Of a stretch of 64,000 bases of DNA, positions 5,069-38,104 are shown piece by piece. The position numbers and the translations under genes are program-made. The stretch comes from Patescibacteria group bacterium (GTDB lineage: Bacteria; Patescibacteriota; Minisyncoccia; Phycocordibacterales; Phycocordibacteraceae): positions 41,150 through 105,149 of the forward strand of contig JBBTSV010000003.1 of the NCBI GenBank assembly GCA_038064595.1, in the 5' to 3' direction. How positions within the stretch are numbered: the first letter of the stretch is position 1; each line of letters begins with the position of its first letter. The notes beneath the pieces were generated by a model, which had not been told where the DNA came from, did no database searches, and saw only the letters and a program-made list of their open reading frames with translations.

Positions 5069-5138
5069 CCTCGCGAACGTGCGCTCGTTCCCCCCGGGAA
5101 CGAGCGCACTGTTGTTTTCAGCGGTACAATACAGGCCT

Positions 5139-5576
5139 ATGGTGGTGACGATTCATACCCTCGATGAGCTCGCCGCCGAGGCGGCGCGTTTTGTTGCGAC
5201 GCTCTCTCCGGGAGCCGGCGCGACCCTCGTCACCCTCTCAGGCGAGCTCGGGACCGGCAAGACCGCCTTCACCAAGGCGGTCGCCAAAGTGTTGGGCATT
5301 GAAGATATCGTCAACAGCCCCACCTTCGTCCTCGAAAAGATCTACCTACTTGGGGGTCCAACCCCCAAGTACGCGCGACTGGTGCATATTGATGCGTATC
5401 GGCTCGAGAAAGGGAGTGATCTCGCGCCCCTCGGTTTTGACGAGCTCATGCAGGAGCCGAACAACCTCATTTTTCTTGAGTGGCCGGAGCGCGTTACTGA
5501 CGCACTTCCTGTGCCAGCGGCAAAGCTCCTTCTAAAGTTACTTCCCGACGGCTCACGCACCATTTCTTATGACTAA
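5139..5576 (+). CDS. tsaE: tRNA threonylcarbamoyladenosine biosynthesis ATPase TsaE
   Basis: P-loop GELGTGKTAFTKAV and the YjeE-like N-terminus MVVTIHTLDEL. The internal ATG at 5139 is in frame. Confidence 0.7.
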   Translation: MVVTIHTLDELAAEAARFVATLSPGAGATLVTLSGELGTGKTAFTKAVAKVLGIEDIVNSPTFVLEKIYLLGGPTPKYARLVHIDAYRLEKGSDLAPLGFDELMQEPNNLIFLEWPERVTDALPVPAAKLLLKLLPDGSRTISYD

Positions 5577-12962: not shown

Positions 12963-13034
12963 TGCTCTCGGACGGAATCGAACCGTCATCGGCCCCTTCG
13001 GAGGGGGCTATCCTATCCGTTGAACGACGAGAGC
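12963..13034 (-). tRNA. tRNA-Arg (anticodon CCG)
   Basis: Reverse complement folds with acceptor GCTCTCG/CGAGAGC, anticodon loop CTCCGAA and T-loop TTCGATT. Confidence 0.8.
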
Positions 13035-13168
13035 GACGTACCTATCCTAGCGCATTTTGTGGTCACGAATAATTTTCTCGACCCCGGCTCGCGGTTTTGC
13101 CTGCTGGCAAAACATCGCTGCGCCCGGCACCAAAGCATAAAACCTGCAGCAGTGCAGGTTTTATGCTT

Positions 13169-13243
13169 TGGTGCTCTCGGCAGGAATCGAACCTGCATCG
13201 TCAGCTCCGCAAGCTGATGTCCTATCCATTGAACGACGAGAGC
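13169..13243 (-). tRNA. tRNA-Arg (anticodon reads GCG; CCA encoded)
   Basis: Reverse complement has the same acceptor stem as the neighbouring tRNA-Arg. Anticodon loop TTGCGGA gives GCG with G37. Confidence 0.65.
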
Positions 13244-13274
13244 GAAGTAGGGGAGCGCCCCCATTGAATGTATA

Positions 13275-13751
13275 TCAGAATCCGAGCCAGCTTGCTACCA
13301 GGTCGGTGAAGGAGTGCGTGTGCGCGCTCTCATCGACGTGGTGGAGAAAGTAGGCATATATCGCGTCTACGTCGACCCCGACGAGCGGGATGATTAAATG
13401 TGGTGAGAGCCAATTCTCTGTTTTAATCGAGAGCATGGGGGGGTATTCGTCCTCGATATCCTCAAGGACCGAAAAAGAAATCATCCGATCAAAGGGATGA
13501 AGCTCGTCGCCGATCATAAGACCTTGCTCAACAAGCTGGAAACGATGGATCGGTGGCTCCTTTGCCGCGTGGAGCGCGAGCGCCCCTGCGGCGACGATGA
13601 TTAAGAACGCAAGAAGAAGATTACCAAATAGGATCGCGGCAATAGTCGCCGCAGTTGCGACAATCCCTACGACCCAATACCAATCGGCATCCTTAGGATT
13701 ATGGTCGTACTCTCGCCCTTCCCACTCGAGGAGTGCTGCGCGTTCTGCCAT
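13275..13751 (-). CDS. hypothetical membrane protein
   Basis: Two predicted TM helices. Start set at Met MAERAALLEW. Confidence 0.35.
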   Translation of the reverse strand: MAERAALLEWEGREYDHNPKDADWYWVVGIVATAATIAAILFGNLLLAFLIIVAAGALALHAAKEPPIHRFQLVEQGLMIGDELHPFDRMISFSVLEDIEDEYPPMLSIKTENWLSPHLIIPLVGVDVDAIYAYFLHHVDESAHTHSFTDLVASWLGF

Positions 13752-25607: not shown

Positions 25608-25689
25608 GCCCAGGTGGAGAAATTGGTAGACTTACCGCCTTGAGGTGGCGGCGCCGTAAGGCATGGAGGTTCGAATCCTCTCCTGGGCA
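25608..25689 (+). tRNA. tRNA-Leu (anticodon GAG)
   Basis: Class II tRNA with anticodon stem CCGCC/GGCGG and loop TTGAGGT. Followed by a hairpin terminator at 25749-25770. Confidence 0.8.
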
Positions 25690-25820
25690 CACAAACACAA
25701 AGCCAAAAAATTCCCCAAACAAGGAATCCTTTACAAAGCATCAACATCGGCCACCAGGCAACTGGTGGCCCGACCTCTTTATTTTTATAAAAAAGAGCAG
25801 CAGTACGGTACACTTTACCC

Positions 25821-26351
25821 ATGCTCTACACCCGCAAAGGAGATACCGGGACGACGACCGCATTTGGCTGTAATCAGCAGCGGATCTCTAAGTCGTCAGA
25901 ACTTCCCGAGGCGCTCGGCTCTCTCGACGAGCTCAATGCGTTCATTGGCTTCGTGAAGATGAAGAGCAGCGAGCCGCGGATCGCCACCACGCTGCGCGAT
26001 GTGCAAGAAAAACTTTTCATCATCCAGGCCGAGACGGCGGGAGCGCAGAAGAAGACAGAGGAGGGGAGTGTGCTCGCTCTCGAGGAGCTGGTGAATGCGA
26101 TTGAGAAAGAGATTCCGCCACTGAAGGGCTTCTCGATAGCGGGCGGGACCGAGCTCTCAGCGATGCTCGACGTGGCGCGAACGCTCGCGCGCCGCGCTGA
26201 GCGCCGCCTCACGGCGGTGAACGAGCTCAAGATCCGCGAGCTCTCTCCGGAGACGCTTGCGTATATGAACCGCCTCTCCTCGCTCCTCTTCGCGCTCGCG
26301 CGGCTCGCCAACCACCTCGCGGGCGTCCCCGAGGAGAACCCGAAATATTAA
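25821..26351 (+). CDS. PduO-type ATP:cob(I)alamin adenosyltransferase
   Basis: MLYTRKGDTGTT N-terminal signature. Confidence 0.8.
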   Translation: MLYTRKGDTGTTTAFGCNQQRISKSSELPEALGSLDELNAFIGFVKMKSSEPRIATTLRDVQEKLFIIQAETAGAQKKTEEGSVLALEELVNAIEKEIPPLKGFSIAGGTELSAMLDVARTLARRAERRLTAVNELKIRELSPETLAYMNRLSSLLFALARLANHLAGVPEENPKY

Positions 26352-26396
26352 AGTTGCTTCAAAGCCTTCGTTTTAAACTCGATTTTATGTCATACT

Positions 26397-28487
26397 TTGC
26401 TCATGAATCGCTCCGAGAGCTATGCCGCCGTTAAGCCCTCTAAACCTAACGATCTTGAGGCTAAACCAGGTATCGTTGACGACCAGGAACAGATTCTTGC
26501 AGGATTTTCTCCCGAAGAGCGAAAGATCATCCGCGAAAGAATGCGTCTCCTCTCGCTCATTCCAAATCACATTGGTAAAGACTTCGAGATGGCAGTCGAG
26601 CTGAATACATCGGGCGAAGGATGGCACTGGAACTTCGCTATCAACCACGTCCGTGTTGACCCGAAAGATCTGCTCGAAAAACCCCTCGACTGGTGCCGCC
26701 AAACAATGGTGCATGAGGGTGGTCATCGACGCGTGTCACGTGTTGATTTCATTCCGAAAGATATTTGGGAACAGCCGGGTTTTTCTTCGATGATGAACGC
26801 GATCGAGGATCCACGCATGGAGAACTTCATTTCTGAAGCGTATCCTCCATATCGCAAGCTCCAGAAGACAGCGTACGAGCACGATCTTGAGTCAGAAAAA
26901 CGCATGAAAGAATCCGCCGATGGAAAGCTTGGGCGACAGCCACGCTTCATGCAAGCTGGATTTGAATATATCAAGCAATGGTTCAAGCAGACCCAAGGTA
27001 AGCCATTCGAGCTCTCCGCAGATTTGCCCGACGACGTACGAGTGGTCGTTAATAAAACTCTCAAGGCAGCCGAGGATTCGTGGCTCCGTTATCCGACCAG
27101 AAACGAGGCTGACAAAAGCGAGGAGGTCATTAAAGCGTATGCGGAAAAATCATACGAAATCAATCGTGATCGAGTGTGGCCAGACTTTAAGAAGCTTGTC
27201 GAACAAGATATTAAGGATCAAGAAATTCCGGAGTTCCTTAAAGACCTTATGCAAGGAAAGGGCGAAGGAAAACCAGAGGCAGGACAAGGAGAAGGACAGA
27301 GTGAAGGCCTTTCGCCACAGGACATCCAAGATATTAAAGATGCAGTTAAAGCGGCACTTGGCGAAAAGGGTGAAGGCAAGCCCATACCTCCTGGCGCGTT
27401 GTCGGAAGAACTTAAACAGAAAATCCAAGCCGCGTTTGACGCGCTCCCCGAGGATAAAAAGCGCGAGATTATGGAAGCGGCACGCGCTGAAATAAAGGAA
27501 TTGGCAGACGAGTTCGCCGCTCAATTTGAGGGTGAATATATTAAAGCCGGAGAACCACAGGGCGAACCAGAATCGGGGACGCTCGAATCCGAAGGTCGTG
27601 CATGGAGCGAGGCGGAGCGAGCGGCTGATGACACGCGACACGAGATGCGGCGGCGCATGGAAGAGTCACTTGGGCGTAGCGAAGGCGATCCATATCGAGA
27701 GGCACTTACAGAAATGGCCTCATACATCGATGCTCTCACTGGTGATCTGCGTGATGTGTTGGTGAAGCGCAAAATGACCACGACGGAGGCAGGGTATCGT
27801 TCAGGAAGGCGCTGGAATATTCGTACCCGCATTAAAGAGCGTATTGCGGATATCCCGCTTATCAAAACCCAGAGTCGAGAACAGCCAGAATCATCTAGCG
27901 AAGAAACCGACTACGCGGTCCTACTTCAAATCGATCTCTCCGGTTCGATGAGCCGTGGTAACAAAATCGAAGAGGCGTTTAAAGCGATTGTGCTATTGAG
28001 CGAAACATTGAACAATCTCAATATCCACTTCGAGATTGATGGCTTCCAAGACCTCCTTCTCGAATTCAAACGTTTCGAGGAACAGCTCGATGAATCGATG
28101 CGGCTTAAACTGAATCAATTGTTGCTTGAAGTTGAAAATGAAAATCCAGATGGACACAATAACGCGGGTGATAACGACGATGGTGCCTGCCTACGAGAAG
28201 CATCACAGCATCTGGCTAACCAAACAGCACGGGAGAAGATTTTGATCGTCCTCTCCGATGGCCAACCCGCCATGGATTCAGGGCGCAAGAGTCAGGGACA
28301 GCTCGATCGAGAACTCAAGGCGGTTATCCGTGAGATTCGTGAGAATACTGACCAAAAACTCATCGGCATAGGCATCAATTCGAGTGCTGTTTCTAGCTAT
28401 TACGAAAACAATCTCCCGAATGTCGATGCGAAAGAGCTTGCCGAAACCCTCGGTGAGTTACTGCGTAGCGTGATTGAACGCAACTGA
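26397..28487 (+). CDS. VWA-domain protein with N-terminal putative zinc-metallopeptidase motif (MoxR partner-type)
   Basis: HExxH (MVHEGGH) near the N-terminus, a long acidic low-complexity middle region, and a C-terminal VWA MIDAS (DLSGSM ... LSDGQP). Confidence 0.7.
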   Translation: MLMNRSESYAAVKPSKPNDLEAKPGIVDDQEQILAGFSPEERKIIRERMRLLSLIPNHIGKDFEMAVELNTSGEGWHWNFAINHVRVDPKDLLEKPLDWCRQTMVHEGGHRRVSRVDFIPKDIWEQPGFSSMMNAIEDPRMENFISEAYPPYRKLQKTAYEHDLESEKRMKESADGKLGRQPRFMQAGFEYIKQWFKQTQGKPFELSADLPDDVRVVVNKTLKAAEDSWLRYPTRNEADKSEEVIKAYAEKSYEINRDRVWPDFKKLVEQDIKDQEIPEFLKDLMQGKGEGKPEAGQGEGQSEGLSPQDIQDIKDAVKAALGEKGEGKPIPPGALSEELKQKIQAAFDALPEDKKREIMEAARAEIKELADEFAAQFEGEYIKAGEPQGEPESGTLESEGRAWSEAERAADDTRHEMRRRMEESLGRSEGDPYREALTEMASYIDALTGDLRDVLVKRKMTTTEAGYRSGRRWNIRTRIKERIADIPLIKTQSREQPESSSEETDYAVLLQIDLSGSMSRGNKIEEAFKAIVLLSETLNNLNIHFEIDGFQDLLLEFKRFEEQLDESMRLKLNQLLLEVENENPDGHNNAGDNDDGACLREASQHLANQTAREKILIVLSDGQPAMDSGRKSQGQLDRELKAVIREIRENTDQKLIGIGINSSAVSSYYENNLPNVDAKELAETLGELLRSVIERN

Positions 28488-28509
28488 CACACCCTGATAT
28501 ACTTCTCTC

Positions 28510-29502
28510 ATGCCCGAAGGCCCTCCCAAAACGGCACCCAAGATACTCGAACAACAGCTCATAGACTTGAGAGAGATTCAGCGCGCACTCGCCGAGGCGA
28601 GAGAGGCCGGGGATGTGGCGGCCGCAGAGGCACTTATGGAGCAGCATCGAGATGCAGTCGAGCCGATGGAAGCCTCAACATCTCCAGGAGAGTCGCCAGA
28701 AGGTGCCACATTAGCAGATGCCGAACGCATCCTCGGCAAAGAATCGATACTTGGTCCCAAAGCTGTGGAGCAGGTGTTCGGAGTCAAACTAGACCGCATA
28801 CCAGCCATCCCGTTTTCACAGCAGGAATTGCAACGCGCCAAAGAGCTCGGTCAACAACTCATTTTCTACACCGACGCTCTTTCACCCACTACGCTAGGAG
28901 AAAAAGTCAAACCACTTACTCTCGCGAATTTGAAACAGAAATTCACAAAAGCCCACGACGACGGCAAAGTTTTCTACGAACAAGATTGGTACAAGAATGA
29001 AGATTTCTTCAAAAAAGAGAAACCGCGCGTTGGTTGGCGACTCACCTCAAAAGATCTACTCCCAGAGTCAACCTCGAAAAACTATCTCGAACAGACCGAT
29101 GTGCTGATCGAGTATTTACAAAAACAAGTCTTCAAGGGAGCAAAACTTCCGAAACCATATGAAGACGCGATCGCAGAGTGGAAGCGTGAACGAGAAAAGA
29201 TCGAGCCACTGGCGACAAGCTCGACAGACACCGAATGGAAATGTGGTTCCCAAATGCTTACCGATCTTGCGATCACTAAGCTCACACGAGAATTACCAAT
29301 CGAAGTCATGTATCGATTTATCCTTAACGATCAGATAAACAAAGATAAACCCCTCCCCTCAGCCTACACATGGACAGCGAGTCGTTCGTCTGGCGGCTAC
29401 CTCGTGCATGTCGGCGGCTTCGGCGACGCGGGTGCGCTTGTGAGCAGGGGCGACCCCGGCGCTCGCCACGACAATCTCGGCGTCTCGTTCTCCCGCAGTT
29501 GA
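28510..29502 (+). CDS. DGR target protein 1 (variable repeat at its C-terminus; paralogous to the C-terminal 265 aa of target 2)
   Basis: The last 41 codons form VR1. Its C-terminal motif ...NLGVSFSRS resembles a CLec-fold DGR variable region. Confidence 0.75.
   Translation: MPEGPPKTAPKILEQQLIDLREIQRALAEAREAGDVAAAEALMEQHRDAVEPMEASTSPGESPEGATLADAERILGKESILGPKAVEQVFGVKLDRIPAIPFSQQELQRAKELGQQLIFYTDALSPTTLGEKVKPLTLANLKQKFTKAHDDGKVFYEQDWYKNEDFFKKEKPRVGWRLTSKDLLPESTSKNYLEQTDVLIEYLQKQVFKGAKLPKPYEDAIAEWKREREKIEPLATSSTDTEWKCGSQMLTDLAITKLTRELPIEVMYRFILNDQINKDKPLPSAYTWTASRSSGGYLVHVGGFGDAGALVSRGDPGARHDNLGVSFSRS
29378..29499 (+). repeat. DGR variable repeat VR1
   Basis: 122-nt alignment to the template repeat gives 19 mismatches, all at template adenines, and 0 of 91 non-A positions differ. 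Confidence 0.9.
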
Positions 29503-29536
29503 TTTTTGAATAGTGAAGAATGAATCTTTGAATCCT

Positions 29537-29559
29537 CTCCGACCCGTTTAGGGTCGGAG
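29537..29559 (+). other. GC-rich hairpin downstream of VR1 (DGR homing-associated stem-loop / terminator)
   Basis: CTCCGACCC-GTTTA-GGGTCGGAG lies 35 nt after VR1. An analogous hairpin follows VR2. Confidence 0.5.
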
Positions 29560-29593
29560 ACTCTCGAAAAATTATTCTGATATACTTCACCAT

Positions 29594-30001
29594 ATGACAC
29601 AAACCTCAGTTGCCCCATCTGCCCTCATAAGCCAATCTATAGGCCTTCCGAATTTGGTCATTGTTGAAAGCTCTAAAACTCTTGAGGGGGCCGAGGCACG
29701 CGTCCGACAAGATCTAGCGGGCTTTATGAAAGCGTCTGACGCCACCTCGGTGCTTGACCACTTAGAGAAAGGCATAAGCGTCCTCTATATAGAACGAGGT
29801 GAGAAGCTCGATCCTCGCGTAGAAACAATTGTGACCACCTATGCGGCTGGTATGGCGAGCTTCGCTTCACCCAGCGGTCTTGTATCTGCCAGCTTCGATC
29901 CGATGCACACAGCCCTCACCATCGTTATTTCCCGTGACGCTCTTGAAAAGAGCTACCCACAGCTTCTCACTTACGCCGGTGCTGTCACTTCTATTTCATA
30001 A
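29594..30001 (+). CDS. hypothetical protein
   Basis: ORF between the two DGR targets with no recognisable motifs. Confidence 0.35.
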   Translation: MTQTSVAPSALISQSIGLPNLVIVESSKTLEGAEARVRQDLAGFMKASDATSVLDHLEKGISVLYIERGEKLDPRVETIVTTYAAGMASFASPSGLVSASFDPMHTALTIVISRDALEKSYPQLLTYAGAVTSIS

Positions 30002-30006
30002 ATCAT

Positions 30007-32073
30007 ATGTCTGAACGCCGACCAACTGCAAAGAGAGAGAAACCAGGACGCGAACCGTTCATCGTAGAGAAGGACGAGTCGGTGTCGTACCTTGGAGTCG
30101 AAGTGCCTAAAGGCGAAGGCGGTCCACTCGTCCCAGGTCGTCAGGAATCAGAAAATTATTTTTATACGGAAGAGGATTACCTGTTGCGCCGAGAGATGGC
30201 GACGTCAATCGCGCTCAATAAACCAATTCTCTTTGAAGGCGGCACCGGCATAGGCAAAACTTCAGCCGTTGCCGCGATGTGTGCCGAGCTCAACCTCAAT
30301 TTCTGCAAGGTGTCCTTCGCGCGCGATATGGCGATTGAGGACGTAATCGGCGGTAAGACTATTGTTAAAGAGGGTGACGCAGAAGTCGTGAAATGGTACG
30401 ACGGCAACTTGATGGTCGCGATTCGCCACGGCGGTATCGCCCTTCTCGACGAATACAACTTTCAAGGCAGCAAAGTCGGCTCGCGTGTGAACCCAGTCAT
30501 TGATGCAATTTTGAACGGGAGAAAAGAAATATCGCTGCCCGAAAATGACAACGAGCGTGTGATGGTGCATCCCAACTTCCGCCTTGTCGCTGCGCAGAAT
30601 CCTCCAGGCACCGAAGAGGGCCAAGAATTTACCGGACGTGAACAGATGTCCGCCGAGACATTCGGACGATGGACGTTTAATAAACTTCCCCTTGAAATGA
30701 GTCGAGACATGCGCGACAAACGTCTCGCAGGCATGATGGGAGAATCTGTTGATATCAAATTGCCTCCTGAAGCCTTCCGCAAGCTCGGCGAGGGCGTTCC
30801 GTTCCACGAACTCAAAGACATTCCTGGAATGACGCATTGGCGTCGTGCTGCCCTCGATGTGCTTGACCAGCTCAAAGCCAAGTCTACCGGTGCAGATCGC
30901 GATATGGCCAAGACACAGCGCCAGCGCCTCTACTTCAACCCGCGCCTTGAGCAAGGACTTCTGAACTACGTCTCTCGCTTCTATCGGGGAGACGTAAACC
31001 AGGTATGGGGCGAAGCATTCGAGCACCTTATCGTCGGCATGTACAAAGATGAGGCTGATCGCCAGGCGGTGCGTGAATTGCTCACGCTAAACGCCTACGA
31101 GCCACAGACCGACACGAAACGCAGGCCACTCGGCGATGCTGAGCGAGCTGAACAAGAAGGGGCAGAAGAAACATGGGCAAAAGTTGCTGAATTTGAAGAC
31201 AAACTTGCTACTAAGATTTCTGCCCTCGAACAGGAGCTTGGCGTTTCATCTGGTGAGAGTAAAGAAATATCGCTTGCCGACGCAGAAAAGATTCTTGGAA
31301 AGGAGTCCGTGCTCGGAGCGAAAGATGTGGAACAAGTGTTCGGAGTCAAACTAGATCGCATACCAGCCATCCCATTTTCACAGCAGGAATTGCAACGCGC
31401 TAAAGAACTCGGTCAGCAACTCATTCTCCAAGTTGATTCAATGACTCACAAGGGGGGACTGATGTCTCGTGAGAAGAGTGCTCCGCTCACGCTTGAGAAT
31501 CTGAAACAGAAATTCACAAAGTCCCACGACGATGGCAAAGTTTTCTACGAACAAGATTGGTACAAGAATGAAGATTTCTTCAAAAAAGAGAAGCCGCGCA
31601 CCGGCTGGAGGCTCACATCAAAAGACCTCGTTCCTGACTCCACGAGTAAGAGCTATCTCGAGCAAACTGATGTACTCGTCGAGCATTTGGAGAAACAGAT
31701 TTTCAAAGGTGTCGAGGTACCAAAACAATATAAGGATGCCATTGCCGAATTCAAGCGCAAGAGAGCAGAGATTGAACCGCTCGCAAAAAGTGGAACAGAT
31801 GCGGAATGGAAAAAAGGTTCCCAGATGCTCGCTGATCTCGCGATTACCAAACTTGCCCGCGAACTGCCGGTCGAGGCCATGTACCGCCTCATTTTGAACG
31901 ACCAAACTCGAAAGGATAAACCGCTCCCCTTAACCTACACATGGACAGCGTGTCGTGCGTCTGGCGGCAGCCTCGTGGATGTCGGCTGCTTCGGCGACGC
32001 GGGTGCGGCTGTGGACGGGGGCAGCCCCGACGTTCGCTACGACCGTCTCGGCGTCTCGTTCTCCCGCAGTTGA
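30007..32073 (+). CDS. MoxR-like AAA+ ATPase fused to a DGR-diversified C-terminal domain (DGR target 2)
   Basis: Walker A EGGTGIGKTS and Walker B ALLDEYN of the AAA_5/MoxR type. The C-terminal ~265 aa are paralogous to target 1 and end in VR2. Confidence 0.8.
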   Translation: MSERRPTAKREKPGREPFIVEKDESVSYLGVEVPKGEGGPLVPGRQESENYFYTEEDYLLRREMATSIALNKPILFEGGTGIGKTSAVAAMCAELNLNFCKVSFARDMAIEDVIGGKTIVKEGDAEVVKWYDGNLMVAIRHGGIALLDEYNFQGSKVGSRVNPVIDAILNGRKEISLPENDNERVMVHPNFRLVAAQNPPGTEEGQEFTGREQMSAETFGRWTFNKLPLEMSRDMRDKRLAGMMGESVDIKLPPEAFRKLGEGVPFHELKDIPGMTHWRRAALDVLDQLKAKSTGADRDMAKTQRQRLYFNPRLEQGLLNYVSRFYRGDVNQVWGEAFEHLIVGMYKDEADRQAVRELLTLNAYEPQTDTKRRPLGDAERAEQEGAEETWAKVAEFEDKLATKISALEQELGVSSGESKEISLADAEKILGKESVLGAKDVEQVFGVKLDRIPAIPFSQQELQRAKELGQQLILQVDSMTHKGGLMSREKSAPLTLENLKQKFTKSHDDGKVFYEQDWYKNEDFFKKEKPRTGWRLTSKDLVPDSTSKSYLEQTDVLVEHLEKQIFKGVEVPKQYKDAIAEFKRKRAEIEPLAKSGTDAEWKKGSQMLADLAITKLARELPVEAMYRLILNDQTRKDKPLPLTYTWTACRASGGSLVDVGCFGDAGAAVDGGSPDVRYDRLGVSFSRS
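31949..32070 (+). repeat. DGR variable repeat VR2
   Basis: 22 mismatches to the template repeat, all at template adenines. VR2 also differs from VR1. Confidence 0.9.
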
Positions 32074-32108
32074 TTTTTGAATACCGAATAATGAAGTCTT
32101 GAGTCCAT

Positions 32109-32129
32109 GCTGACCCGTTCAGGGTCAGC
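32109..32129 (+). other. hairpin downstream of VR2
   Basis: GCTGACCC-GTTC-AGGGTCAGC, followed by a T-run. Confidence 0.5.
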
Positions 32130-32333
32130 ATCCGCGCAAATTTTTTGCTAGTATGGACATACGGCTAATGAAGCGTCATTTACGGATGTCGCTCGCCGAA
32201 AAACACTGCTTGTCCGCCATTAGCGCAAACGGTTGAAGTAATGGGACAGTGCGCACATCCTATAACCCGAAACAGCTCACGCCTTTCGCGCATGCGAAAC
32301 GCTGGGGCGAAGCCACGGACGATGGCGGACAAA

Positions 32334-32455
32334 ACGAGTCGTACGTCTGACGGCAACCTCGTGAATGTCGGCAACTTCGACGACACGGGTGCGAATGTGA
32401 ACAGGAACAACCCCGACAATCGCAACGACAATCTCGGCGTCTCGTTCTCCCGAAG
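32334..32455 (+). repeat. DGR template repeat (TR)
   Basis: 31 adenines, AAC/AAT-rich (7 AAC). It is the invariant copy relative to VR1 and VR2 and sits in a degenerate remnant of the target C-terminus, upstream of the RT. Confidence 0.9.
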
Positions 32456-32459
32456 TGTT

Positions 32460-32487
32460 TCCAACACCACTCAGATGAGTGGTGTTG
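32460..32487 (+). other. 13-bp-stem hairpin immediately after TR
   Basis: CCAACACCACTCA-GAT-GAGTGGTGTTGG followed by ATTTTT. It may be a DGR spacer RNA structure or a terminator. Confidence 0.4.
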
Positions 32488-32851
32488 GATTTTTCGTATA
32501 CTTGATCCATCCGCCGACCATGCTACCGATCTCGATTATTTTCTCAGAGAGCGAGGCGAATCCGGCATCGTTGATGCTCCCCGTTTTATACGCAAGGCGC
32601 AGATGGGTCGTGAGCATCTTGAGTGTTACGTCCGCTTTATTAAGTATCAAAAGCCGAGACGCTCCCTGCTTGCTTTGTGCAAGGTAGAGAAGCTCGATGA
32701 TTTCGAGTATGGTATTTTCTATTCTCACACCGAGCGTGTACCGTTCCGGTTTTTTGAATTTCAAGACTCGCTTGTGCGCAGCAAGGTACAATTGGCTCAC
32801 TTTATGGAAAACGATCGGCTCGGTGTACGTCTCGACAGTGGATTGGGTCAT
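32471..32851 (-). CDS. avd: Avd-like accessory variability determinant (four-helix-bundle protein)
   Basis: 126 aa. The C-terminus IIEIGSMVGGWIKYTKN and the helix pattern match Bordetella bAvd (IAEVGRILGSWIARVNRK). It is encoded antisense between TR and RT. Confidence 0.65.
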   Translation of the reverse strand: MTQSTVETYTEPIVFHKVSQLYLAAHKRVLKFKKPERYTLGVRIENTILEIIELLYLAQSKQGASRLLILNKADVTLKMLTTHLRLAYKTGSINDAGFASLSEKIIEIGSMVGGWIKYTKNPTPLI

Positions 32852-33889
32852 AAGGATTTATTTAAGCTCATAATCTCCAAGGAGAACATTTTCGCCGCGT
32901 GGCGGGAGTTCCAGAAGTGGAAGATGAGCAAACAGGACGTGCTCGCATTTTCAGAACATTTTGAAGAGCATCTCTTGCAATTGCACTACGACCTTGCAAA
33001 TGGGCGATACCGACATGGACCCTATATACGCTTCCTCATTCAGGATCCGAAACAGCGTAGTATCGCCAAAGCAAGCGTCCGCGATCGCGTCCTGCATCAC
33101 GCCATCTGTCGCGTGATCACGCCGAGCTTTGATAATGCATTTGTATTTGATACGTACTCGAGCCGCAAGACCAAGGGCGTCCATCGAGCGATCGAACGGC
33201 TCGTACGTTTGGCGTGGCGACTATCCCGAAACAACACACAGACCGTCTGGATGCTTAAGTGCGATATACGAAAGTTTTTCGAGAGTGTTGGCCATGACAG
33301 ATTGCTTGAGTTATGTACGAGACGCATTGATGACAGTCGTGTTATGGCCCTACTCAAGAATATTCTCGGTAGTTTTGAAGCGGAACCTAGAACTAGAAAG
33401 AGTATCCCTCTCGGCAACCTCACTTCACAGCTCTTTGCTAACATCTATCTCGACCGATTTGATCAGTATGTGAAGCGCGAATTGCGTTTCAAGAATTATC
33501 TCCGCTATACCGACGACTTCATACTGCTCTCCACTGATCGCGAAGAACTTGAACGCACCTTACCGCTCATACGGGATTTTCTCTTACGTGACCTCAATCT
33601 CGATTTGCACCCAACAAAAGTCACATTTCGGAAGTGGCATCAAGGCGTCGACTTTCTTGGCTATGTGCATTTTCCGCATCACCGAGTTATCCGTACGAAG
33701 ACAAAGAAACGTATGATTCGAAAACTGCGCAATCGAAAAGAAACTTTTGAAGCTAGAGACATCGACGAAGATGAGTTGCGCCAAACGGTAGCATCGTATC
33801 TCGGTGTTCTCTCGCACTCTCAAAACAGAGGATTGGCGAGACGCATTCGTCGTGATTTTCTCCCTAAGGGTAAGGCTCTTACCGAGTAA
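32804..33889 (+). CDS. DGR reverse transcriptase
   Basis: Bordetella Brt-like motifs: KENIFAAWREF, GPYIRFLIQDPKQRSI, the DGR-specific LGNLTSQLFANIY and YTDDFILL. Start set at the ATG at 32804; the upstream part of the ORF is unsupported. Confidence 0.9.
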   Translation: MENDRLGVRLDSGLGHKDLFKLIISKENIFAAWREFQKWKMSKQDVLAFSEHFEEHLLQLHYDLANGRYRHGPYIRFLIQDPKQRSIAKASVRDRVLHHAICRVITPSFDNAFVFDTYSSRKTKGVHRAIERLVRLAWRLSRNNTQTVWMLKCDIRKFFESVGHDRLLELCTRRIDDSRVMALLKNILGSFEAEPRTRKSIPLGNLTSQLFANIYLDRFDQYVKRELRFKNYLRYTDDFILLSTDREELERTLPLIRDFLLRDLNLDLHPTKVTFRKWHQGVDFLGYVHFPHHRVIRTKTKKRMIRKLRNRKETFEARDIDEDELRQTVASYLGVLSHSQNRGLARRIRRDFLPKGKALTE

Positions 33890-33971: not shown

Positions 33972-34045
33972 GGTGGTCGTAGCTCAATTGGTAGAGCATC
34001 TGCTTGTGGAGCAGAAGGTTGTGGGATCGTGACCCATCGACCACC
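33972..34045 (+). tRNA. tRNA-His (anticodon GTG) with G-1
   Basis: G-1 plus acceptor GTGGTCG/CGACCAC, anticodon loop TTGTGGA, C73. Confidence 0.75.
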
Positions 34046-34072
34046 CAAAAAAGATTGTGCTACCATCTCCAC

Positions 34073-34720
34073 ATGAAAACTCTCTTTGGCGGCATTGCCC
34101 TTATCATAGTCCTCGGGATCGGCGGTTTTATTTACCGTAATGCGCTTGAGCACCCATCTCGGACGATCGCGTGCCCGCTCGACGCACAACTGTGCCCCGA
34201 CGGCACGGCGGTGACGCGCACCGGCCTCTCCTGTACCTTCCCCGCATGCCCGCCACCCAACGTAACGCTCGCCGACCTCGGTATATCCTTTGCGCTCCCT
34301 GCTACACTCCAAGATGCTCCGCTCGCCGACTCAAGCGCGCAGTTCAATTATGACCTGGTGACGAACGCGTCATCGACGGCGTCGGGGAGTGTCTATATCT
34401 ACCGGTACCCGATCGCCGCTTCTTCGACCGCGCTCGCGACGATACAACAGACAGCGATAACGACTCCATCGGGGCTCCCGGCGCGTGCTACGGCGCTCAC
34501 CTCAACGGCGCTCGGGAACTATCGCTTTACGGTGGTCGGGATCGAGCGCAACGAGGGCGTCCTCATCACCGCCTACTACCTCGCCCGAGCCACCGACGTG
34601 CTACGTTTTGACGCAGTTGATACCGATGTTCGTAATTGGACGGATCCCCAGCTCGACCCGACGACGCTCCCGGCGCACCAGGCGCTCCGTGCACTCCTCT
34701 CGACACTCCAAGGACAGTAG
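34073..34720 (+). CDS. membrane-anchored hypothetical protein
   Basis: N-terminal TM helix and a Cys-rich segment. Internal ATG at 34073. Confidence 0.4.
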   Translation: MKTLFGGIALIIVLGIGGFIYRNALEHPSRTIACPLDAQLCPDGTAVTRTGLSCTFPACPPPNVTLADLGISFALPATLQDAPLADSSAQFNYDLVTNASSTASGSVYIYRYPIAASSTALATIQQTAITTPSGLPARATALTSTALGNYRFTVVGIERNEGVLITAYYLARATDVLRFDAVDTDVRNWTDPQLDPTTLPAHQALRALLSTLQGQ

Positions 34721-34755
34721 CCTCGTGCTACACTAGAAACATAATTATTACCACT

Positions 34756-35565
34756 ATGAACAATACTCTTTCTGAATTACTCGAGAATAGCGGGATACGA
34801 ATCGCGATGATTGGTGCACTCTCGATCCTCGCGCTCTACCTCCTTGCCCAAACCATCACACTCGCGGCAGACTTCGGTCGCTCGGGCGTGCCCGCGACCG
34901 ATACCATCACCGTGCAGGGAAGTGGCGAGGTCTCAATTGTCCCTGATGTCGCAAAGATCTCGTTTAGTGTCGAGAACGTCGCGGCGACCGTCGCAGTAGC
35001 GCAAGCGGCGACTACCAAACAGACCGACGCGGCACTCGCCGCGATGAAGGCGGCGGGTATTGCTGACAAGGACATCAAGACGACCTCCTACTCAATCTCA
35101 CCGCAATATGCCTACCCGACCCCATGCTATGGGATCACGTGCCCGGTGCCCGTTGACGGCTACACCAGTGGTTCACCAAAGATCACCGGCTACCAGGTGT
35201 CGCAGAGTGTGCAGGTGACGGTGCGCGAGCTCGATGGCGTCGGTGCGGTTCTCGAGAGTCTCGGCAAGCTCGGTGTTCAGAATGTATACGGCCCCAACTT
35301 CGCCCTCGACGACTCGACGGCAGCCTATGCCGCCGCACGTGCCGACGCGATCATGAAGGCGAAGCAGCAGGCCACCGTTCTCGCGAAGCAGCTTGGCGTT
35401 CGTCTCGGGAAGGTCGTGAACTTCTCCGAGTCGAGTGGTGGCTACCCGTATCCGGTGATGTACGACATGGGGATGGGAGGAGCCAGCAAGGTCTCAGCTC
35501 CCAATATCCCGGCAGGTGAGAACACCTACAACGCCTCAGTCTCCATCACCTACGAGATCCGCTAG
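34756..35565 (+). CDS. SIMPL-domain (DUF541) protein
   Basis: N-terminal TM helix, then a SIMPL-like pattern (VSIVPD ... ITGYQVSQSVQVTV). Confidence 0.6.
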   Translation: MNNTLSELLENSGIRIAMIGALSILALYLLAQTITLAADFGRSGVPATDTITVQGSGEVSIVPDVAKISFSVENVAATVAVAQAATTKQTDAALAAMKAAGIADKDIKTTSYSISPQYAYPTPCYGITCPVPVDGYTSGSPKITGYQVSQSVQVTVRELDGVGAVLESLGKLGVQNVYGPNFALDDSTAAYAAARADAIMKAKQQATVLAKQLGVRLGKVVNFSESSGGYPYPVMYDMGMGGASKVSAPNIPAGENTYNASVSITYEIR

Positions 35566-36911: not shown

Positions 36912-36993
36912 GGAACATCGATGAACCTTGTGAGGTAGTTTTAGAGCGTAGCGAAGAAAAATAGCCACAAGGTGTACAGCTCCTGTAGTGAAT

Positions 36994-37890
36994 TAGCACT
37001 CTGATTGCACCACCCCGCTAATATCGGAGTATGAAATACCAGCGTCTGAGCGTGGAGGGAACGTGAAGAAATACAGCAGGGACCGATTTCAGAGAAGTGT
37101 CTGATGAGGAGATTGCGAAAGTAGAGTACAGACCATTGATTTTTGAGCATATCTACTCTATAATTAACAATGCTGTTAATTCTTACATCTAAATTTTAAA
37201 AAAATAGTATGGCTATGCGCCTATTGAGATCCGTTCTGATTGTAGTAGTACTTTCAATTATAAGTTGGGTTTCGTATACAGAATACTACGTAGCATTTAG
37301 AGACCCTTACCCGCATTATCCCTCAGGCATAATTCTTTATATGCTCATTTTAACGATTTTTTTAATTTCTTATTACTTCTTCAATTTTATTGTTTGTAGA
37401 AATGAGAAAATTTTATCAAATTATTTTCGCCCCACTTGGCCAAAGCGACCCCGAGCCCTTTTAGTTCTCGCACTAACGCCCATAGGAAATTTTTTCACGA
37501 TTCCGGTCCCCTTCTTTCTAACGTGTCTGCTTATGGTTCTGTCTTTATTTGAGTCGGGACTAAAAGCAATTAATGCTTTTGTTTTTTCGGCTCACTTCGT
37601 GGTCTTTTGCACAGCAATAGTAGGGGCGTACATCTTTGAGTGTATTGCCATGGATCAAGGTTGGAAGAGAATGTCCTATGCAGGAAGACTCATAATTTAT
37701 TTGTTAGGTATGTATCTTTTTGCTAGTGTTCTGACAGGAATGTCTTATATCTAACTTCGTCCCATTCGAATACTGTGTCCCGCTCGTAGCATACGAGATG
37801 TCACCAACCATACCCCGTTCCAATCTGGGTATGTGCCATATGTACCGGAGTATGGAAGCCCCACGGGGGGTGGTGCAATCAGAGTGCTAA
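36994..37890. mobile_element. AT-rich insertion bounded by about 23-nt inverted repeats (putative small mobile/foreign segment)
   Basis: TAGCACTCTGATTGCACCACCCC at 36994-37016 is the reverse complement of 37867-37890. The interior is strongly AT-rich and carries one membrane-protein ORF. Confidence 0.35.
37209..37754 (+). CDS. multi-pass membrane protein (within the AT-rich insertion)
   Basis: About 5 predicted TM helices. Low GC. Confidence 0.4.
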   Translation: MAMRLLRSVLIVVVLSIISWVSYTEYYVAFRDPYPHYPSGIILYMLILTIFLISYYFFNFIVCRNEKILSNYFRPTWPKRPRALLVLALTPIGNFFTIPVPFFLTCLLMVLSLFESGLKAINAFVFSAHFVVFCTAIVGAYIFECIAMDQGWKRMSYAGRLIIYLLGMYLFASVLTGMSYI

Positions 37891-38104
37891 TGCACCTGTA
37901 AGGAGTTGATGTGTCTCATTTTCGTTCTAGAGTTATGAATCGATACGTAAAGCCGGAGGACTCGTGTGGCTCGTCTGAAATAATTTTTGTGAACTCGTTT
38001 TCATAGGGAGGAAAGAATGTATCGGCGCCTCTGGCGCCGGTTTGCTTTTTAACCTCCCCATCTATAGAGTAGGCCTGTGTTCAACCAGTTCTTTGGAGGG
38101 CCAA

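Follow-up and report, generated by a model that had tools for sequence, protein, structure and literature searches.

We analysed a 64,000-nucleotide (nt) stretch of DNA, referred to here as the window, from a Patescibacteria group bacterium, which belongs to the candidate phyla radiation (CPR; GenBank assembly GCA_038064595.1, contig JBBTSV010000003.1, positions 41,150 to 105,149). Positions 28510–32140 of the window very probably form the target half of an intact, complete chromosomal diversity-generating retroelement (DGR). The cassette reads as a VWA gene, a free target gene (target 1), a small gene of 135 amino acids (aa; ORF135, where ORF is open reading frame), a target gene fused to an ATPase (target 2), the template repeat (TR), avd on the opposite strand and the reverse transcriptase (RT) gene (Table 1). 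The ORF list and repeat scan covered 24–38 kb of the window, and a search for the core of the variable regions (VRs) covered the full 64 kb. An earlier sequence-only reading of this DNA had overlooked both the minus-strand avd and the upstream VWA gene; on the plus strand, neither ORF135 nor a 148-aa ORF lying over the TR gave an Avd match. With TR first, RT last and a reverse-strand avd between them, the core order TR-(avd)-RT is that of architecture B3, which makes up 90% of the CPR set of Wu et al. (2018 NAR; PMC5758913) and occurs almost nowhere else. In that survey two targets per cassette were found in 13% of DGRs, and 'CLec fused to an AAA ATPase' has been described as the commonest CPR target architecture (PMC10907252). 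A two-target DGR with one ATPase-fused and one free target is a layout already catalogued, and the locus adds one example to a class surveyed in CPR.

Table 1 Features of the DGR cassette, in window coordinates
Feature	Coordinates	Strand	Remarks
VWA / CobT-C-like partner gene	26397..28487	+	first cassette gene, 696 aa; Pfam CobT_C 7.8e-18, VWA 3.6e-4
CTGATATACTTC copy 1	28494..28505	+	extended -10-like box TGnTATACT; left rearrangement junction
Target 1, free DGR variable protein, 330 aa	28510..29502	+	~55-aa helical N-terminal segment, then predicted lectin-fold module
VR1	29378..29499	+	IMH-like invariant end 29476-29499; 19 mismatches to TR
Hairpin 1	29536..29560	.	10-bp stem, loop GTTTA; 3' flank of fused-gene type
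CTGATATACTTC copy 2	29577..29588	+	right rearrangement junction; -10-like box before ORF135
ORF135, conserved small cassette gene	29594..30001	+	22 homologues
Target 2, AAA_5 (MoxR/CobS-like) ATPase fused to module, 688 aa	30007..32073	+	AAA_5 aa 74-205; module aa 410-688
VR2	31949..32070	+	IMH-like invariant end 32047-32070; 22 mismatches to TR
Hairpin 2	32107..32131	.	10-bp stem, loop GTTCA; hairpin and flank of free-gene type
TR RNA gene	32146..32497	+	23-locus alignment, RNAalifold, pair counts, terminator-like site
TR	32335..32456	+	122 nt; 5' edge may reach 32331
avd, 126 aa	32471..32851	-	antisense to TR and RT; Pfam bAvd
DGR reverse transcriptase	32804..33889	+	start ATG 32804 or TTG 32843; listed ORF from 32603

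The repeat scan found one 122-nt segment in three copies, namely VR1, VR2 and the TR. All mismatches between the TR and the two VRs (41/41) fall at TR adenines, and the non-adenine positions of the TR are identical across the three copies (91/91) although the flanking module DNA is only ~76% identical. Nearly every TR adenine (30/31) corresponds to codon position 1 or 2, and the segment holds ten AAY codons. The 20-nt GC-rich core CTCGGCGTCTCGTTCTCCCG occurs exactly three times in 64 kb, with 0.02 occurrences expected by chance, and its search yielded no further VR beyond the known copies. After the core comes CAGT in the two VRs and AAGT in the TR, beyond which VR and TR flanks are unrelated, giving a predicted initiation of mutagenic homing (IMH) element at each VR end and a non-identical predicted IMH* at the TR end. 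The RT matched Pfam RVT_1 (1.5e-22) and carries a YTDD catalytic box together with the motif LGNLTSQ, which fits the pattern [I/L]GxxxSQ that we take to be typical of DGRs. Avd matched Pfam bAvd (PF22296; 2.5e-14, 54.1 bits against a cutoff of 40); its match to NCBIfam DivGenRetAVD (1.7e-17, 63.6 bits) is under that model's 80-bit cutoff. At its 3' end avd overlaps the hairpin that follows the TR (32460–32489), and at its 5' end it overlaps by 9–48 nt with the probable start of the RT.

Relatives were surveyed at one genome per species, which gave 78 loci, almost all of which carry either a Patescibacteria label or one that resembles a mis-binned metagenome-assembled genome (MAG); related loci are denoted here by L numbers. 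In two close relatives, L084 and L085, the TR differs from that of the window at 4–5 non-adenine positions, and within each genome both VRs carry the same bases as their TR. The lineage-specific substitutions among the three genomes include GTCGTACGTCTG versus GTCGCGACTCTG and ACACGGG versus ACACTGG. At adenine sites the VRs vary between the window, L084 and L085. Both window VRs have the same IMH-like end, followed by a TGA-rich spacer and a hairpin at equal distance. Because the non-adenine match is perfect in both VRs, lineage-specific TR bases appear in both, and the IMH-like end, spacer and hairpin are common to both, a single RT and TR evidently serve both the ATPase-bearing target and the target that lacks it, as the sequence-only reading had proposed.

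The two targets share far more than their VRs. Residues 54–330 of target 1 align with residues 410–688 of target 2 with 207 of 280 positions identical (74%; BLASTP, E = 9e-146), and the corresponding DNA (28759–29555 and 31321–32126) is 78% identical over 793 aligned bases and remains alignable beyond the stop codons. The shared unit is the entire ~0.83-kb module with its 3' flank, in agreement with the earlier description of a ~0.9-kb module common to both targets, each copy with its own 122-nt VR and its own 10-bp hairpin 33 nt past the stop codon; self-alignment does not confine the similarity to the VRs. The ~80% identity given there holds as an average, but in 60-nt windows identity ranges from 45% to 98%, and we read the average as a mosaic of a ~65–70% background, gene-conversion tracts and a VR homogenised by the DGR.

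The amino acid sequence of target 1, compared along its whole length and with the private N-terminal ~55 residues included, is 84% identical to P0080, the free gene of L084. Its identity to target 2 is 74%, and on this ground we regard it as the orthologue of the free gene of the relatives. In sliding windows against the L084 and L085 paralogues, most of target 1 is 85–97% identical to the free gene, with two stretches that are 69–78% identical to the free gene and 85–98% identical to target 2. Among 256 diagnostic sites, defined as positions that distinguish the L084 paralogues, target 1 has 154 of free type and 72 of fused type (154 of 226 assignable sites free), with the latter concentrated at 28800–28842 and 28950–29045, and target 2 has 167 of fused type and 66 of free type. 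This clustering of site types indicates gene-conversion tracts between the paralogues, to which the high local identity between the targets can be ascribed.

A phylogeny of the three 122-nt copies would be uninformative because of TR-to-VR overwriting: information flows from TR to VR and similarity is continually re-imposed, so the resemblance of the three copies is silent on where the TR came from. In its place we built a module phylogeny with the VR removed. The resulting neighbour-joining (NJ) tree, with 87 modules, for the most part sets the fused and the free modules of related genomes apart in orthologous groups of their own (L054/L059, L013/L015, L021/L032, L001/L008), and within-genome pairs are occasionally sisters (L005, at 83%; L074). 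This pattern implies that the duplication is old and recurrent and that the paralogues are sometimes homogenised.

The 97 modules that we typed fell into three classes: free (~300–360 aa), fused to a ~400-aa AAA_5 region (~690–720 aa) and fused to a longer AAA_5 region (~920–1020 aa). An ATPase-fused target was present at 35 loci, and at 22 of these at least one free paralogue lies beside it, a lower bound owing to contig ends. The orders among these paired loci (s, free; F and B, fused) were Fs in nine, sF in four, Bs and sB in three each, sBs in two and Bss in one. A fused and free pair thus reads as an old, recurrent and widespread feature of CPR cassettes, and the proposal that the target 2 module had been duplicated as a stand-alone target 1 gives way to an ancient pair in which target 1 already has orthologues. 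The second fused class (915–1022 aa, with a different, longer AAA_5 N-terminal region) was seen in L011, L012, L016, L018, L025, L031, L033, L034, L041, L052, L073 and L074. Pfam confirmed the longer AAA_5 region in the four proteins tested, and in most of these loci the fused target has one or two free paralogues beside it, often with no detectable VWA gene.

In relatives spanning 94% down to ~45% identity in the fused protein, the cassette runs VWA, ORF~135, AAA_5::module, free module (~330 aa), TR, (avd) and RT. A CobT_C gene of 686–722 aa occupies the same position as the VWA gene in L001, L003, L005, L084, L085, L087, L088 and L090. The true start of the window copy is probably the ATG at 26403, and its product matches TIGR01651 (CobT) at 3e-13 and 49 bits, against a cutoff of 759 bits. 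In close relatives ORF135 always separates the VWA gene from the AAA gene; it has 22 homologues at 58–93% identity, and an alignment of 13 sequences has a mean column identity of 79%. No Pfam, NCBIfam or PADLOC match was found for ORF135, and its AlphaFold2 model is unreliable (predicted local distance difference test (pLDDT) score 47). The avd-RT unit is placed differently in some relatives, either beyond the opposite end of the targets or with its orientation reversed (upstream and inverted in L001/L008; also L009, L033 and L039). A script for direct repeats found no TR in L001, inverted copies not being part of that search.

The window departs from this arrangement in the position of its free gene. 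The six close relatives that we read (L084, L085, L086, L087, L088 and L090) all have the order VWA-ORF135-fused-free; they represent four distinct sequences, as L086 repeats L085 and L088 resembles L090. We therefore take the window order, VWA-free-ORF135-fused, to be derived. The flanks record the exchange. The 3' flank of target 2 is the one that follows the free gene in relatives, with the hairpin ATGCTGACCC-GTTCA-GGGTCAGCAT followed by CGCGCAAATTTTTTGCTAG and the TR leader. Diagnostic sites of s-type (free type) number 25 across 32106–32173, and in stem and loop hairpin 2 is identical to the hairpin behind the L084 free gene. Behind target 1 the flank (its hairpin and CTCTCGAAAAATTATT) is of fused-gene type, with 13 F-type diagnostic sites across 29536–29570, and after CTCTCGAAAAATTATT the remaining sequence before ORF135 is the right half of the VWA-ORF135 spacer. 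The sequence CTGATATACTTC occurs once in relatives, in that spacer, and on both sides of target 1 in the window.

These junctions are most easily derived in two steps, although the mechanism itself is our reconstruction. Since both VRs are repeatedly overwritten by the DGR, the VR/IMH regions of the two targets have a run of ~40 nt in common without a mismatch. Recombination between these regions would excise the hairpin, spacer and free gene as a circle, which would then re-insert by recombination between similar spacers of the form TGnTATACT...CACCATG. We consider VR-by-VR recombination followed by re-insertion the likeliest route to the junctions observed.

Behind each VR stands a perfect 10-bp hairpin 33 nt past the stop codon. 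Hairpin 1, TCTCCGACCC-GTTTA-GGGTCGGAGA, has a minimum free energy (MFE) of -22.8 kcal/mol (z = -4.6 against shuffles), and hairpin 2 an MFE of -22.7 kcal/mol (z = -3.4); the lower halves of the two stems differ by paired, compensating changes. In related modules from many lineages strong stems recur ~29–39 nt past the stop codon with unrelated sequences (AATCCCCGCGCT/AGCGCGGGGATT, ATCCCGCC/GGCGGGAT, AATCGACTCCC/GGGAGTCGATT), while paralogous hairpins within one genome have a common loop and upper stem (the window, L013 and L027). Across the 97 modules, 39% of downstream windows had z < -2, compared with 18% of 150 control gene ends (Mann–Whitney p = 5e-5). Hairpins required by DGRs have stems of 7–10 bp located 4–34 bp from the VR and are conserved in structure, not in sequence (Guo et al. 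2011; PMC3240598), and both window hairpins lie within these ranges in stem length, GC content and distance, with a loop outside the GRNA type. We favour a role for the hairpins in target recognition. The spacers between stop codon and hairpin (29500–29535 and 32071–32106) are rich in TGA/TTGA repeats, for example TTGAnnCTTTGA, and are recognisably conserved across distant CPR lineages though non-coding; they may be an extended target-recognition sequence.

The TR itself lies inside a conserved non-coding RNA of ~340 nt, delimited by an alignment of 23 CPR loci that extends from the hairpin of the last target to just past the TR (Table 1). In these loci the conserved domain begins with GGCTAATG just past a TGnTATAAT-like box; in the window these are an extended -10-like box, TGcTAGTAT, at 32146–32154 and the conserved 5' end at 32163–32170. 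Helix 1 spans 32172–32193. Helix 2 pairs 32202–32207 with 32454–32459 at the 3' edge of the TR, with one pair switching from C-G (12 sequences) to G-C (10 sequences), and helix 3 pairs 32210–32221 with 32321–32332, ending at the 5' edge of the TR. A terminal 13-bp hairpin (32460–32489) is followed by a T run, together forming a terminator-like site. With RNAalifold and pair counts, 93.9% of alignment cells in the three helices were paired, compared with 41–48% when partners were slid, and double-sided changes numbered 142 cells compared with 20–29 in the slid controls; none of 500 shuffles (0/500) reached the observed values. The TR is accordingly modelled as a bulge between two covarying helices formed with one contiguous leader strand. 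Its place in a covarying RNA, together with its adenine placement and the identity of its non-adenine bases with both VRs, stands against the earlier suggestion that the TR is a decayed copy of a target C terminus. Rfam gave no match at E <= 1 in 32050–32900, and the 5' domain of the RNA appears to be specific to this CPR group.

No Shine–Dalgarno-like motif precedes target 1, but such motifs accompany only 6 of 37 long ORFs, and because they are rare in this genome the absence means little. Hexamers resembling a -10 element end 6–8 nt before the start codons of the VWA gene, target 1 and ORF135, the latter two also having a TG upstream; a promoter scan returned TTGAAC-18-TATACT with an upstream TG at 28474–28503, the box ending 6 nt before the target 1 ATG. 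This arrangement suggests leaderless or near-leaderless mRNAs for the three genes and leaderless translation that is widespread in the genome, and target 1 would then be as well equipped with expression signals as its neighbours. Boxes of this kind, at 28494–28505, 29577–29588, 32146–32154 and 26385–26402, stand before cassette genes and the TR RNA.

Target 2 carries an AAA_5 domain (Pfam 1e-11; AAA_3 at 4.5e-6) and ends in its VR, and the protein is 100% identical to one named 'MoxR family ATPase [Patescibacteria group bacterium]' by NCBI, from a Patescibacteria MAG. Target 1 (Pfam, NCBIfam) and the isolated module of target 2 (Pfam) had no meaningful domain match, so the fold was taken from structure prediction. 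The AlphaFold2 model of the module (pLDDT 90.3) places the VR on a C-type-lectin or FGE-type fold with a large helical insertion, which would end both targets; Foldseek proved insensitive for this module. In the model the variable residues sit on the C-type-lectin fold, one of the two folds (C-type lectin or Ig) expected of DGR targets, and Wu et al. (PMC5758913) left open the fold of the AAA-linked CPR class, UVR4. By inspection, with no predictor applied, neither N terminus shows a signal peptide or membrane segment, and the target proteins for this reason look cytoplasmic. By analogy with the systems discussed below, the targets most likely act inside the cell as a variable sensor of ligands, coupled to an ATPase-VWA machine.

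The closest known elements are the CPR B3 DGRs of Wu et al. (PMC5758913; UVR4, target category g1), which have the same order of TR, opposite-strand avd and RT and the same type of target, an N-terminal Midasin/AAA_5 ATPase with a C-terminal VR, the window VR being a candidate member of the UVR4 class. In the literature examined we did not find stated the pairing of fused and free targets, the constant VWA/CobT-like and ORF135 partners, the conversion mosaic or the VR-mediated rearrangement. The DGR of Bordetella phage BPP-1 (mtd-avd-TR-brt; PMC3240598) likewise transfers TR sequence to its VR in an adenine-specific manner with Avd and RT, has a GC-rich, IMH-like VR end, and carries a GC-rich stem of 8–10 bp, 4–34 bp from the VR, that forms a hairpin or cruciform. 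It differs in having one target rather than two, a phage tail fibre rather than apparently cytoplasmic, ATPase-linked proteins; in the window avd has the inverse orientation and a place between TR and RT; the window hairpin loop is the 5-nt GTTYA, whereas that of BPP-1 is a 4-nt GRNA; and the window RNA has its element for pairing with the edges of the TR mostly 5' of the TR, unlike BPP-1. The DGR RNAs of Bordetella and other phyla described by Handa et al. (10.1101/2023.10.23.563531) also loop the TR out between paired flanks and have a stem-loop directly after it. That study covered 207 DGRs, took 40 nt upstream of the TR into its analysis and described a duplex, the 'cPRT stop', in which sequence upstream of the TR pairs with sequence downstream of it. 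Unlike those RNAs, the CPR RNA has a conserved 5' domain of ~170 nt with its own promoter-like box and GGCTAATG start, and both its clamping helices lie on one contiguous leader strand.

In domain content the cassette is nearest to the MoxR-vWA ternary conflict systems (Kaur et al. 2020 eLife, PMC7159879; Dore et al. 2024 PNAS, PMC10907252), in which a MoxR-type ATPase gene likewise adjoins a vWA gene and a lectin/FGS domain, always C-terminal, is diversified by a DGR; the lectin proteins of those systems have been proposed to be cytoplasmic sensors of antigens or ligands. The window has the ATPase gene in the same cassette as the vWA gene, but it lacks a VMAP or effector component: Pfam, NCBIfam and PADLOC found no VMAP, peptidase, TIR or other effector domain in the cassette. 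In the published systems the lectin belongs to the vWA component and the third component is a VMAP with an effector domain, whereas in the window the lectin is borne by the ATPase and also occurs free, and the vWA protein is CobT-C-like. The hosts also differ, multicellular cyanobacteria and gammaproteobacteria in one case and a CPR bacterium in the other. Since there is no VMAP component and the lectin sits on the ATPase rather than the vWA protein, we do not file the locus as a member; judged by this analogy, it would work as those systems do. A cobalamin-biosynthesis locus (CobS/CobT with an adjacent adenosyltransferase) was ruled out both by scores far under the curated cutoffs (PD_CobS, 34 bits against 558; CobN was not part of the search) and by non-conserved linkage.

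The cassette is placed between tRNA-Leu(gag) (25608–25690) and tRNA-His(gtg) (33973–34046). Genes for Cob_adeno_trans (25821–26351) and SIMPL (34636–35565) flank it here, and both lie on one side of it in L003 (Parcubacteria bacterium 21-54-25), so that its position relative to conserved neighbours differs between genomes and the Cob_adeno_trans linkage looks incidental. In L003 the cassette from VWA gene to RT is bracketed by direct repeats of ~290 nt, 83% identical (5090–5380 / 13020–13320), which hints that it moves as a unit; the window contains no counterpart of these repeats. Elsewhere in the window, a 29-nt inverted repeat, 97% complementary (36988–37016 / 37867–37895), brackets an 850-nt segment that may be a small mobile element unrelated to the DGR.

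Three accounts of the paired targets differ from ours. That only one VR is still live, the other being a relic that retains similarity, would accord with the unequal target diversification within one locus published for multi-target DGRs (PMC10907252) and with window VRs known from consensus sequences rather than read-level variation. We judge it very unlikely, as both VRs are perfect at the 91 non-adenine positions in surrounding DNA that has diverged by ~24%, lineage-specific TR substitutions appear in both VRs of three genomes, both have kept the IMH-like end, spacer and hairpin, and both ORFs are intact and conserved. It is yet more doubtful that the target 2 module was duplicated recently, and in this lineage alone, to give target 1, with the TR as a third, decayed copy of the series. 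The modules are 74% identical, locally 90–98%, and in the NJ tree the target 1 module falls beside the fused-type modules of the window, L003 and L006 rather than beside their free modules; yet the full-length identity of target 1 to the free gene of relatives, private N terminus included, exceeds that to target 2, its fused-type sites come in tracts within a free-type majority, and the pair recurs at 22 of 35 related loci from many CPR lineages. The perfect non-adenine match of the TR to both VRs and its place in a covarying RNA likewise go against decay. Least credible of all is a metagenome mis-assembly across the repeated modules that misplaced the free gene upstream of ORF135. The locus does hold ~0.8-kb repeats and all six close relatives read have the other order, but the window order is repeated in a separate ENA assembly record, on a contig of 61 kb (L092), and on further contigs of 50–200 kb, which makes mis-assembly unlikely; moreover the longest perfect stretch common to the copies is only ~40 nt, two hybrid junctions would be required, and a free-then-fused order is also found in a distant clade (L013, L015 and L027).

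A stronger competitor, though still an unlikely one, is that the downstream hairpins are ordinary terminators or operon punctuation with no part in target recognition. They do stand at gene ends, an A/T-rich run follows 9–10 nt on and then the -10-like box of the next transcription unit, some control gene ends fold as strongly, and GC-rich repeats were detected with high confidence in only 34% of DGRs (Wu et al., PMC5758913). The T run, however, begins 9–10 nt after the stem rather than abutting it, and a terminator scan called neither VR hairpin. The spacing of 33 nt in both copies and of ~29–39 nt in distant lineages whose stem sequences are unrelated, the retention of loop and upper stem between paralogues of one genome, and the agreement of a 10-bp GC-rich stem at this distance with hairpins that are required experimentally also favour recognition, and the two roles are not mutually exclusive.

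Drawing these observations together, we propose that an RNA of ~340 nt would be transcribed from ~32160, with two covarying helices holding the 122-nt TR out as a bulge. From what is known of the family, RT and Avd would copy the TR into cDNA with misincorporation opposite adenines, and in two genes the cDNA would take the place of the 3'-terminal homologous VR, in line with the transfer seen in both VRs. The IMH-like end, the TGA-rich 33-nt spacer and the 10-bp hairpin would mark each VR. The diversified residues would lie in the predicted lectin/FGE fold of the free target 1 and the ATPase-fused target 2, both encoded in what appears to be a conserved operon with the VWA/CobT-like protein and the small ORF135. 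A broader joint reading seems to us possible rather than probable. In it, the fused and free paralogues would be an obligate, co-diversified two-part sensor of a VWA/CobT-like and MoxR/CobS-like machine conserved across Patescibacteria; DGR homing would keep the 3' ends of the paralogues identical and so make them portable recombination sites that drive gene conversion and target reshuffling, with the derived order seen here as an outcome; and the CPR TR would reside in an undescribed RNA family of ~340 nt with its own promoter-like box and one leader strand pairing both TR edges, the template being the bulge.

Several observations weigh against the main account. Excision and re-insertion is one of several paths that give identical junctions. 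Terminator hairpins are expected at gene ends anyway, with 18% of control gene ends scoring equally well, and the window loop has 5 nt (GTTYA) where a 4-nt GRNA loop is critical in the Bordetella phage. The consensus VRs are identical in separately recorded contigs, and any ongoing diversification in the population is putative. The role of the ATPase-VWA-lectin set is deduced from domain content and the published MoxR-vWA analogy, and PADLOC models match none of the VWA, ATPase, ORF135, target 1 and Avd proteins.

The covarying RNA around the TR supplies testable template boundaries for CPR elements, which to our knowledge have never been reconstituted. The locus offers a clean and compact natural case, backed by three lines of sequence evidence, of one TR feeding two paralogous targets and is a possible model for DGR target choice. 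It also points to a cost or side-effect of DGR activity that we did not find discussed in the literature examined, whereby identical paralogue ends would promote ectopic recombination among the element's own targets. Finally, the recurrent pairing of fused and free targets with a VWA partner provides a concrete hypothesis for the function of the commonest CPR DGR target.

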